From the sequence record OR352938.1: a stretch of DNA of 64,000 bases. One strand, written 5' to 3'. This document shows, one piece after another, positions 26,868-27,825 of the stretch. The translations under genes and the position numbers were made by a program. How positions within the stretch are numbered: the first letter of the stretch is position 1; every line of letters begins with the position of its first letter. A model generated the notes under the pieces. The model saw nothing but the letters and a program-made list of their open reading frames with translations, was not told the DNA's origin and did no database searches. The stretch is from Escherichia phage AV108.

Positions 26868-27227
26868 TTAGTCACGGGAAGACAACCCAGCCATAAAACG
26901 GCTTAACAGTGTGTCGCGATAAGCAAAGCATAATTGCTTATCAGGGGCAGTATCACAAAGGTTGCGTTTTGTTTTAGCAAAGCTGGCAATACTCAGATCC
27001 CACGCTCGATTTTTTCGTTTTTCGTCTCGACCTTGTTTGTATGCTTCGTCGAGTTCAAGTGCGATAAAATCACTACACATGTTATCATCATCACAGAAAG
27101 TTTTAATGATCTTTTTGTTGATCTCAAATCCTTTGTATTCGAACTTTGGATAAGGGCGCTCATTACTAGCAAGCGCACCAGCCGAGAACATCATAGCAAT
27201 CATAGCAATTATTGTCAACTTTTTCAT
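26868..27227 (-). CDS. secreted/periplasmic protein with signal peptide (119 aa, 4 Cys)
   Basis: MKKLTIIAMIAMMFSAGALA-SNE signal peptide. Confidence 0.55.
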   Translation of the reverse strand: MKKLTIIAMIAMMFSAGALASNERPYPKFEYKGFEINKKIIKTFCDDDNMCSDFIALELDEAYKQGRDEKRKNRAWDLSIASFAKTKRNLCDTAPDKQLCFAYRDTLLSRFMAGLSSRD

Positions 27228-27234
27228 ATATTCC

Positions 27235-27825
27235 TCAATAGCGTTTAGTCTTAAGAATGCCTTTACTCTTTAGATGGTTAGCCTTTTTTAGTACGTCATC
27301 AGCATAACCTAATCCGGCTTTATAGTTCCATCCAGCATTGTAAGAAGCTAGCGCGAGTCGGATATTACCGTTTCGAACATCCAGCCAGTATGCTAACTCA
27401 TCCATCGCGTAGAATGCAGAAACCTCGCGATTCATGATAAAGTTGATAGTCTGGCGATCACTCATTTTAACACCGCGCTTTGCATTTTTCGCTTTCACCG
27501 TTTTAAGGTAATTTTGAAATAATCCATAAGCATGATGATTTTTCTTTGGTGCTAAGTTTGCACCCGCGCTTGATTCTTGCCATGCGATACCCGCCAGGAT
27601 GTGACCTAAACCCTTTCCGTTATAGCGAATATTCGGATGGTACTTTTTCAACTTACCGCTTTTCTCGAATTGCTCGCCGTATTGATAGGCGAAATGTAAA
27701 TTATCTAGTTGGTGTGCTGTAAAGTTGTCTATCGGCGCTTTTTTGATCGGTGCGCTAGTCGATGCGTGTGTAGCACCAACGGCTAGTGACAGACTCAATA
27801 CTATCGCTTTTAGAACTTTTAACAT
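27235..27825 (-). CDS. secreted lytic transglycosylase-like protein (SLT domain) with signal peptide
   Basis: MLKVLKAIVLSLSLAVGATHA signal peptide; AWQESSAGA, YGLFQNY, ASYNAGWNY resemble SLT motifs (E-S, GLMQ, AYNAG). Confidence 0.6.
   Translation of the reverse strand: MLKVLKAIVLSLSLAVGATHASTSAPIKKAPIDNFTAHQLDNLHFAYQYGEQFEKSGKLKKYHPNIRYNGKGLGHILAGIAWQESSAGANLAPKKNHHAYGLFQNYLKTVKAKNAKRGVKMSDRQTINFIMNREVSAFYAMDELAYWLDVRNGNIRLALASYNAGWNYKAGLGYADDVLKKANHLKSKGILKTKRY

Follow-up and report, generated by a model that had tools for sequence, protein, structure and literature searches.

The vs.1-vs gene pair of Escherichia phage AV108 is predicted to encode a secreted lytic transglycosylase and a small exported protein long labelled a valyl-tRNA synthetase modifier

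In phage T4 the neighbouring genes vs.1 and vs lie in the order regB - vs.1 - vs - tk.4. The name vs goes back to a genetically defined T4 function by which a small phage polypeptide alters the host valyl-tRNA synthetase (ValRS) (Muller and Marchin 1975, 1977). The resemblance of T4 vs.1 and five of its orthologues to SLT is already in the literature of 2003 and 2006: the 2006 paper (PMC1524935) described it with reference to an earlier T4 genome analysis. Here we describe this gene pair in Escherichia phage AV108 (sequence record OR352938.1), in a stretch of 64,000 nucleotides (nt) that was analysed as a whole and is called the window. A 2.2-kb piece containing the pair is 98.7-99.2% identical to the Escherichia phages JSE, RB49 and Phi1 and to about 55 other genomes of Krischvirus, which are T4-like Straboviridae; the window is about 99% identical to JSE, in whose annotation the 196-amino-acid (aa) open reading frame (ORF) is vs.1 ("hypothetical protein"), the 119-aa ORF is vs ("valyl tRNA synthetase modifier"), and the flanking genes are regB and tk.4. 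The two proteins share 97-100% identity with Krischvirus proteins and, judged by sequence, the pair represents the already catalogued Krischvirus orthologues of T4 vs.1 (NP_049725) and vs (NP_049724). This long-catalogued identity and the ValRS-modifier label of the 119-aa protein were missed by the original prediction, made from the DNA alone, which had described two adjacent signal-peptide proteins, one of them a lytic transglycosylase. We propose, with a rough probability of 0.6, that Vs.1 is a periplasmic lytic transglycosylase working with Vs as its co-translated periplasmic partner. Both ORFs are real and lie on the minus strand, where the transcription order is regB, an 85-nt gap, vs.1, a 7-nt gap, vs, a 15-nt gap and the macrodomain ORF. 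The features that carry the argument are as follows.

27235..27825, minus strand: vs.1, encoding a 196-aa precursor, a predicted soluble periplasmic family-1 (GH23) lytic transglycosylase
27763..27825, minus strand: predicted signal peptide of Vs.1, approximately residues 1-21, with predicted cleavage between THA and S (exact site approximate)
27574..27576, minus strand: codon of Glu84 (in WQ-E-S), the predicted catalytic acid, conserved in 24/24 sequences and aligned to Slt70 E505
26868..27227, minus strand: vs, encoding a 119-aa precursor, a predicted small exported four-helix four-cysteine protein
27168..27227, minus strand: predicted signal peptide of Vs, residues 1-20, with predicted cleavage between ALA and S

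Our sequence and structure comparisons support the assignment of Vs.1 as a secreted SLT-type (GH23) lytic transglycosylase. The Pfam SLT profile (PF01464) scores 25.8 bits on Vs.1 against a gathering cut-off of 21.3, aligning residues 76-167 with positions 16-99 of the 117-position profile, and 25.1 bits on T4 Vs.1, which is 52% identical to the protein studied here and also above the cut-off; in the phage family collection Vs.1 falls into phrog_600 ("unknown function"; E-value (E) 1e-59). All three motifs that had been read from the sequence are present in the 196-aa ORF, namely ES (E84-S85), GLFQ (residues 101-104) and SYNAG (residues 161-165) as the AYNAG-like element. In an alignment of 24 family members with identities down to 40%, GLFQ and SYNAG are invariant or nearly so, and the invariant residues are E84, S86, H97, A99-Y100-G101, F103-Q104-N105, S161-Y162, A164-G165 and Y174; the family also possesses a conserved N-terminal helix, specific to it, with the pattern F35-x3-Q39-x2-N42-L43-x2-A46-Y47-x2-G50. 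Profile alignment with hhalign placed HILAGIAWQES...YGLFQ of Vs.1 on YAMAIARQES...SGLMQ of E. coli Slt70, with E84 on residue E505 of the Slt70 precursor, which is the catalytic acid Glu478 of the mature enzyme, and the spacing of the motifs is alike in the two proteins (ES-17-GLFQ-60-SYNAG in Vs.1, ES-15-GLMQ-58-AYNAG in Slt70). The AlphaFold2 model of Vs.1, built from the 24-sequence alignment, has a mean predicted local distance difference test (pLDDT) score of 84 and a predicted template modelling (pTM) score of 0.78, with a disordered N-terminus. When this model was compared with the PDB by Foldseek, the top 20 matches were all lytic transglycosylases or other GH23 proteins with probabilities of 0.95-1.0, including MltD and Slt of P. 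aeruginosa (the best fold matches), LtgA and a GH23 chitinase, and later matches did not exceed 0.57; the template modelling (TM) scores of about 0.4-0.5 were computed on the full precursor. The fold search, the Pfam score and the register of the catalytic Glu with Slt70 therefore bear out the SLT fold expected from the motifs.

Both proteins begin with a segment resembling a Sec signal peptide. By the rule we used, a signal peptide has a positive n-region, then a hydrophobic segment of 9 or more residues free of charges, and a small-x-small site between residues 15 and 35; this rule is positive in 8 of the 111 non-overlapping ORFs of the window, Vs.1 and Vs among the 8. The N-terminus of Vs.1 reads MLKVLKAIVLSLSLAVGATHA followed by STS after the predicted site, and that of Vs reads MKKLTIIAMIAMMFSAGALA followed by SNE; over residues 1-30 the AlphaFold2 pLDDT is 53-57 in Vs.1 and 47-51 in Vs. 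Among relatives the rule is positive for 22 of 23 Vs.1 and 52 of 56 Vs proteins, the exceptions having short or truncated N-termini, and the sequences of these segments are not conserved. A signal-like N-terminal segment occurs in the orthologues of T4, STP4-a, KPV15, CC31, Acj133, PM2, Konradin, Det7, dune and phiA8-29, and the GenBank record of phage Konradin places a "putative periplasmic secretion signal" on both proteins and names Vs.1 a "putative lytic murein transglycosylase". In CC31-type Vs (L005:1914-2240) the signal peptidase I site is replaced by a lipobox, LSGC (FALSGC), in the lipoprotein signal MKKLFVLLVVFALSGC, which suggests that this variant is membrane-anchored rather than soluble. 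We infer that Vs.1 and Vs are exported by Sec, in agreement with the two adjacent signal-peptide proteins of the original prediction.

Vs is, as first described, a Cys-containing protein of 119 aa, with four Cys. It belongs to phrog_1256 ("valyl tRNA synthetase modifier"; E 1.8e-33), and its close homologues carry Pfam PF26829 (ValRS_modifier). It aligns end to end with T4 Vs at 29% identity, with C45, C51, C91, C100, G66 and G114 conserved, and the four Cys (C45, C51, C91 and C100) are invariant in the family. A hidden Markov model (HMM) scan of 1.84 billion (1.84e9) representative proteins found the Vs family in 26 clusters only, all of 77-134 aa; the family is phage-only, and the exhaustive HMM search for distant or bacterial relatives returned no protein above 134 aa and none with several domains. 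The AlphaFold2 model of Vs has helices at residues 31-45, 49-72, 76-86 and 97-115, with pLDDT 82-95 in the mature part. In this model one Cys pair sits at the turn between helices 1 and 2 and the other in the loop before helix 4, which makes two local disulfides plausible; these are probably C45-C51 and C91-C100. Mature Vs has a computed mass of 11.6 kDa here and 11.0 kDa in T4, with a pI of 8.3-8.9. Direct and profile sequence searches of the PDB with Vs gave no meaningful match, the NCBIfam scan matched no model for Vs.1 or Vs, and the structure search with the Vs model gave no informative fold match, BFVD returning only orthologues and a phage "lipoprotein", so annotated, that is a distant structural relative. 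Comparison with the known periplasmic inhibitors of lysozymes or transglycosylases (Ivy, MliC/PliC, PliG and Spackle) revealed no similarity of fold or sequence.

The two genes are closely coupled. In every Straboviridae genome opened (T4, STP4-a, CC31, Acj133 and Konradin) vs lies directly 3' of vs.1, usually with overlapping stop and start codons, and the adjacency recurs in two metagenomic contigs. In the window the Shine-Dalgarno sequence of vs (GAGGA) overlaps the stop codon of vs.1, and Vs is therefore probably translated in step with Vs.1. In Acinetobacter-type lineages the pair opens a contiguous run, vs.1 - vs - X (phrog_4957) - Y (phrog_6298) - rI antiholin, in which all five products begin with a signal or membrane segment. 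By tblastn, Vs.1 relatives are found in 2,085 phage records from at least three groups (Straboviridae, Ackermannviridae and Felixounavirus); those outside Straboviridae include Det7 gp70 and phiA8-29 gp168 (Ackermannviridae) and dune gp24, a "putative lysin" (Felixounavirus). Two of the annotated vs.1 genes are irregular: the KPV15 call is shortened (L004:1561-1923) to 120 aa starting inside the SLT domain, and the PM2 call is split (L007:1403-1968), with a 98-aa N-terminal fragment and then 268 nt without annotation; frameshifts, sequencing errors or pseudogenes may lie behind these two calls.

Genetic data on the pair are available for T4. In a transposon-sequencing preprint (HIDEN-SEQ; bioRxiv 10.1101/2025.11.20.689424) both vs and vs.1 are classed as non-essential. 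After liquid competition in LB, vs had a mean insertion count of 26.6 and vs.1 one of 22.6 in that study, compared with 130-770 for neighbouring genes (regB 179, tk.4 290, vs.3 652, vs.4 265). In M9-glucose, vs is the most depleted gene (log2 fold change -2.19, adjusted p 0) and vs.1 is mildly depleted, with a log2 fold change of -0.87 (p 0.0055; adjusted p 0.155, non-significant after correction); a vs knockout forms poor plaques on M9-glucose (bioRxiv 10.1101/2025.11.20.689424). The parallel cost of vs and vs.1 in LB fits a shared process, or else polarity of vs.1 insertions on vs.

In the model that we propose, the Vs.1 precursor would lose its Sec signal peptide by cleavage on export, and the soluble enzyme would reach the periplasm of the infected cell, where Glu84 would serve as the single catalytic acid on the beta-1,4 bond between N-acetylmuramic acid (MurNAc) and N-acetylglucosamine (MurNAc-beta-1,4-GlcNAc) of murein, so that 1,6-anhydro-MurNAc ends would form. 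Vs would be exported too. Two local disulfides would probably hold its four-helix domain (about 11.6 kDa) together, and in the envelope it would serve the process that Vs.1 serves, most likely by binding the enzyme and modulating or targeting it. Starting early in infection, the two proteins would remodel the sacculus of their host cell, perhaps in connection with the periplasmic lysis-control genes nearby (rI). A cell-wall remodelling at the injection site for the phage's own entry, which was among the functions first suggested, is excluded on grounds of timing, as expression of the gene has to await the entry of the DNA. The other functions first suggested, superinfection exclusion and inhibition of a host lysozyme or defence factor, are speculative.

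Several points weigh against this model. Signal peptides were called by an in-house n/h/c heuristic rather than by a trained predictor, and experiments on export, activity or interaction of Vs.1 and Vs were not found in the searchable literature. The relationship of Vs.1 to known enzymes is distant: the Foldseek E-values are 0.014-0.4, the hhalign match to Slt70 is weak (E 0.12 over 31 columns), and phmmer and profile searches of PDB sequences with Vs.1 gave no meaningful match. The Vs.1 homologues of Ackermannviridae and Felixounavirus have no adjacent Vs, so that the enzyme does not depend on Vs as a partner. The similar transposon phenotypes of vs and vs.1 could arise from polarity of vs.1 insertions on vs, and the M9-specific defect of vs could equally come from a role in amino-acid supply or translation. 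Finally, Vs has been labelled for decades as a factor that binds ValRS, a cytoplasmic enzyme.

This last conflict is the sharpest, since the predicted export of Vs, its invariant Cys, the lipobox of one lineage and the close coupling of vs to the gene of an exported enzyme all stand against a cytoplasmic target; the signal peptide, the four invariant Cys and the CC31 lipobox do not predict for Vs the cytoplasmic location that would be compatible with ValRS binding. Three options may account for it: the function was assigned to the wrong ORF, Vs associates with ValRS only after lysis, or its export is inefficient. We tentatively hold it possible, at somewhat less than even odds, that the "valyl-tRNA synthetase modifier" acts in the periplasm, as a disulfide-bonded partner of Vs.1 in an envelope-directed gene cluster, and that the ValRS label is misassigned or describes an association that the basic mature protein forms only after cell breakage. 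In that case the poor growth of T4 delta-vs in minimal medium would stem from the cell envelope. The opposite reading, which we regard as doubtful, takes the annotation as right: Vs would be the T4 "tau" that binds cytoplasmic ValRS, its adjacency to vs.1 would reflect gene packing only, and its hydrophobic N-terminus would serve export inefficiently or not at all. The family label of phrog_1256 and PF26829 ("ValRS_modifier") agrees with this, as does the place of T4 vs as the most depleted gene in minimal medium, where amino-acid supply limits translation. Tau reportedly has a size of about 10 kDa, and mature T4 Vs would have 11.0 kDa; a size that fits cleaved Vs would itself imply passage through Sec. 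A description derived from UniProt also names Vs in this way, citing Muller and Marchin (1975, 1977). Against the identity of Vs with tau stand the signal peptide kept in 52 of 56 relatives despite sequence divergence, the four Cys invariant in the family, the lipobox of the CC31 lineage, and the tight coupling to an exported enzyme, in some lineages within a run of exported proteins that ends in rI. Moreover, the gene was left unassigned in the original sequence record of T4 from 1986, where vs appears only as "ORF 60.9", and our literature searches found neither the basis on which the vs ORF was later assigned nor any remark on its signal peptide. N-terminally His-tagged T4 Vs expressed in the cytoplasm of E. 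coli was insoluble and formed inclusion bodies (PMC8076793), as might be expected of a precursor that carries a signal peptide and four Cys.

A second alternative keeps both proteins in the periplasm and makes Vs a dedicated inhibitor or antidote of Vs.1 that prevents premature lysis, comparable to the action of Spackle on the gp5 lysozyme or to Ivy and PliC. The pair is translationally coupled with both products predicted to be exported, Vs is small, helical and predicted to bear disulfides like known periplasmic inhibitors, and vs mutants fare worse than vs.1 mutants in M9. However, loss of the enzyme should be neutral if Vs were a pure antidote, and the LB depletion of vs.1 insertions (22.6) matches that of vs (26.6), which argues against a mere antidote; the Vs.1 homologues of other phage families that occur without Vs point in the same direction, and we consider this alternative unlikely. 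Least probable is a reading of Vs.1 as something other than a lytic transglycosylase, either a murein binder without catalytic activity or a hydrolase of the goose-type lysozyme kind, since the marginal sequence similarity to SLT, the presence of hydrolases in GH23 and the GH23 chitinase among the fold matches are set against family-1 E-S, GLFQ and SYNAG motifs that are kept across 24 sequences down to 40% identity, lie in register with Slt70 and accompany best fold matches to MltD and Slt.

The original prediction had also placed the pair on one early transcript upstream of the macrodomain gene. The signals and genes that bear on this, together with further features of the region and of related phages, are as follows.

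27860..27888, minus strand: sigma-70-like promoter candidate, TTGACT-17-TATTAT, in the 85-nt gap between regB and vs.1, matching the consensus at 10 of 12 positions
27831..27836, minus strand: Shine-Dalgarno sequence of vs.1, AGGAGA, 5 nt before the ATG, containing GGAG, the RegB cleavage motif
26397..26852, minus strand: tk.4, the macrodomain gene, encoding 151 aa (Pfam Macro, 29.9 bits)
27911-28405, minus strand: regB as a mechanical ORF with a TTG start, 164 aa; the gene ends at 27911
24745-25047, same strand as vs: rI, 1.8 kb downstream of vs
L005:2237-2656; L008:2330-2755 and 2764-3054; L014:2842-3566; L015:2818-3536: loci of phrog_4957 and phrog_6298

The position of the genes, the promoter-like site and the lack of any convincing terminator between vs.1, vs and tk.4 agree with a common transcript, and in the T4 record of 1986 the corresponding site, upstream of ORF 61.4 (= vs.1), is annotated as a potential promoter. 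Early timing is suggested by analogy with T4 and by the match to a sigma-70-type consensus, so that the "early operon" is plausible. The best regional sigma-70 match is another one, TTGACA-17-TATGAT with an upstream TG (11/12; 27190-27218, minus strand), within the first codons of vs; it falls in the signal-peptide codons and probably arises from the coding sequence itself, and could alternatively be an internal promoter feeding tk.4. Control of vs.1 by RegB through the GGAG in its Shine-Dalgarno sequence was considered and given little weight: the motif is present in 5 of the 8 phages or contigs checked and is not conserved in T4, STP4-a and CC31.

The macrodomain gene had been taken as a hint to function, and this link is probably positional only. 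T4 Tk.4 is an anti-DarTG2 macrodomain, named AdfM, that acts on DarT-modified DNA in the cytoplasm (bioRxiv 10.1101/2025.11.20.689424), so that the gene downstream of vs has a cytoplasmic role of its own, and tk.4 insertions do not show a phenotype like that of vs or vs.1. The tk.4 protein of the window matches the DarG-like antitoxin model of NCBIfam with E 3.5e-13, below the threshold of that model. In Aeromonas phage phiA8-29 (L011:2504-3734) the vs.1 homologue is directly followed by a tk.4-like macrodomain gene, with no vs between them, and the macrodomain is 33% identical to that of the window (E 2e-12); the adjacency of vs.1 and the macrodomain gene therefore recurs outside Straboviridae.

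In many T4-like phages one or two extra exported or membrane proteins are encoded between vs and tk.4 or rI. The phrog_4957 protein has about 140 aa, with a signal peptide ending in ...NAWEK, and the phrog_6298 protein about 97 aa; tblastn found no match to either gene within the window. A 97-aa protein of phrog_16027 with two strongly hydrophobic segments (25712-26005, minus strand), encoded between tk and small zinc-binding genes, is another envelope-directed product of the early region. As for regB, the JSE annotation gives 141 aa and the Pfam match of the window ORF begins at residue 29; the true start is probably the ATG at 28333.

The pair is in most respects an ordinary conserved T4-type gene pair, and its novelty is limited to the conflict over the site of Vs action. 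More than 2,000 phage genomes, drawn from at least three groups, retain this predicted early secreted lytic transglycosylase. The predicted export of Vs conflicts with a function attached to it for about 50 years, and the transposon screen provides a scorable vs phenotype, poor growth in minimal medium, which opens the question of localization to simple genetics. The label "valyl-tRNA synthetase modifier" spans hundreds of phage genomes and has in many records already degraded to "valyl-tRNA synthetase", so that its correction would clean a widely propagated annotation. Such drift is visible in GenBank for both genes: vs often carries the name of the enzyme itself, "valyl-tRNA synthetase", and several records (kaaroe, N2, teqhad) call vs.1 a "site-specific RNA endonuclease" or an "endoribonuclease RegB domain-containing protein".

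Compared with the T4 pair, the gap before vs.1 is 85 nt and holds a promoter-like site here, whereas it is 7 nt in T4, and the 7-nt gap between vs.1 and vs replaces an 8-nt overlap; T4 Vs shares the four Cys and the signal peptide with Vs of the window, which has a longer N-terminal mature segment. T4 Spackle (gp61.3) is a small signal-peptide protein that inhibits the gp5 tail lysozyme, an enzyme of lysozyme fold, in the periplasm. Its likeness to Vs is functional only: Spackle targets the enzyme of a superinfecting phage, whereas Vs is coupled to an enzyme of the phage in the same cell, and the T4 genetics argue against pure inhibition by Vs. The T4 RI antiholin is likewise small and secreted, by way of a signal peptide that can be cleaved off (PMC8385771); rI is contiguous with vs.1-vs-X-Y in Acinetobacter-type phages and lies on the same strand 1.8 kb downstream of vs here. 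RI has no homology to Vs.1 or Vs, and an effect of these two on lysis timing would be conjectural. The closest relatives in fold are the bacterial lytic transglycosylases Slt70, MltD, MltE/EmtA and LtgA, with which Vs.1 has the catalytic-domain fold, the order and spacing of motifs and, by its signal peptide, a predicted periplasmic location in common. Unlike them, Vs.1 would be a minimal single domain of about 175 residues, without the superhelical U and L domains of Slt70, the LysM of MltD or the lipid anchor of the Mlt enzymes, and it is encoded by a phage, apparently as an early product rather than as an enzyme of the virion or the lysis cassette.

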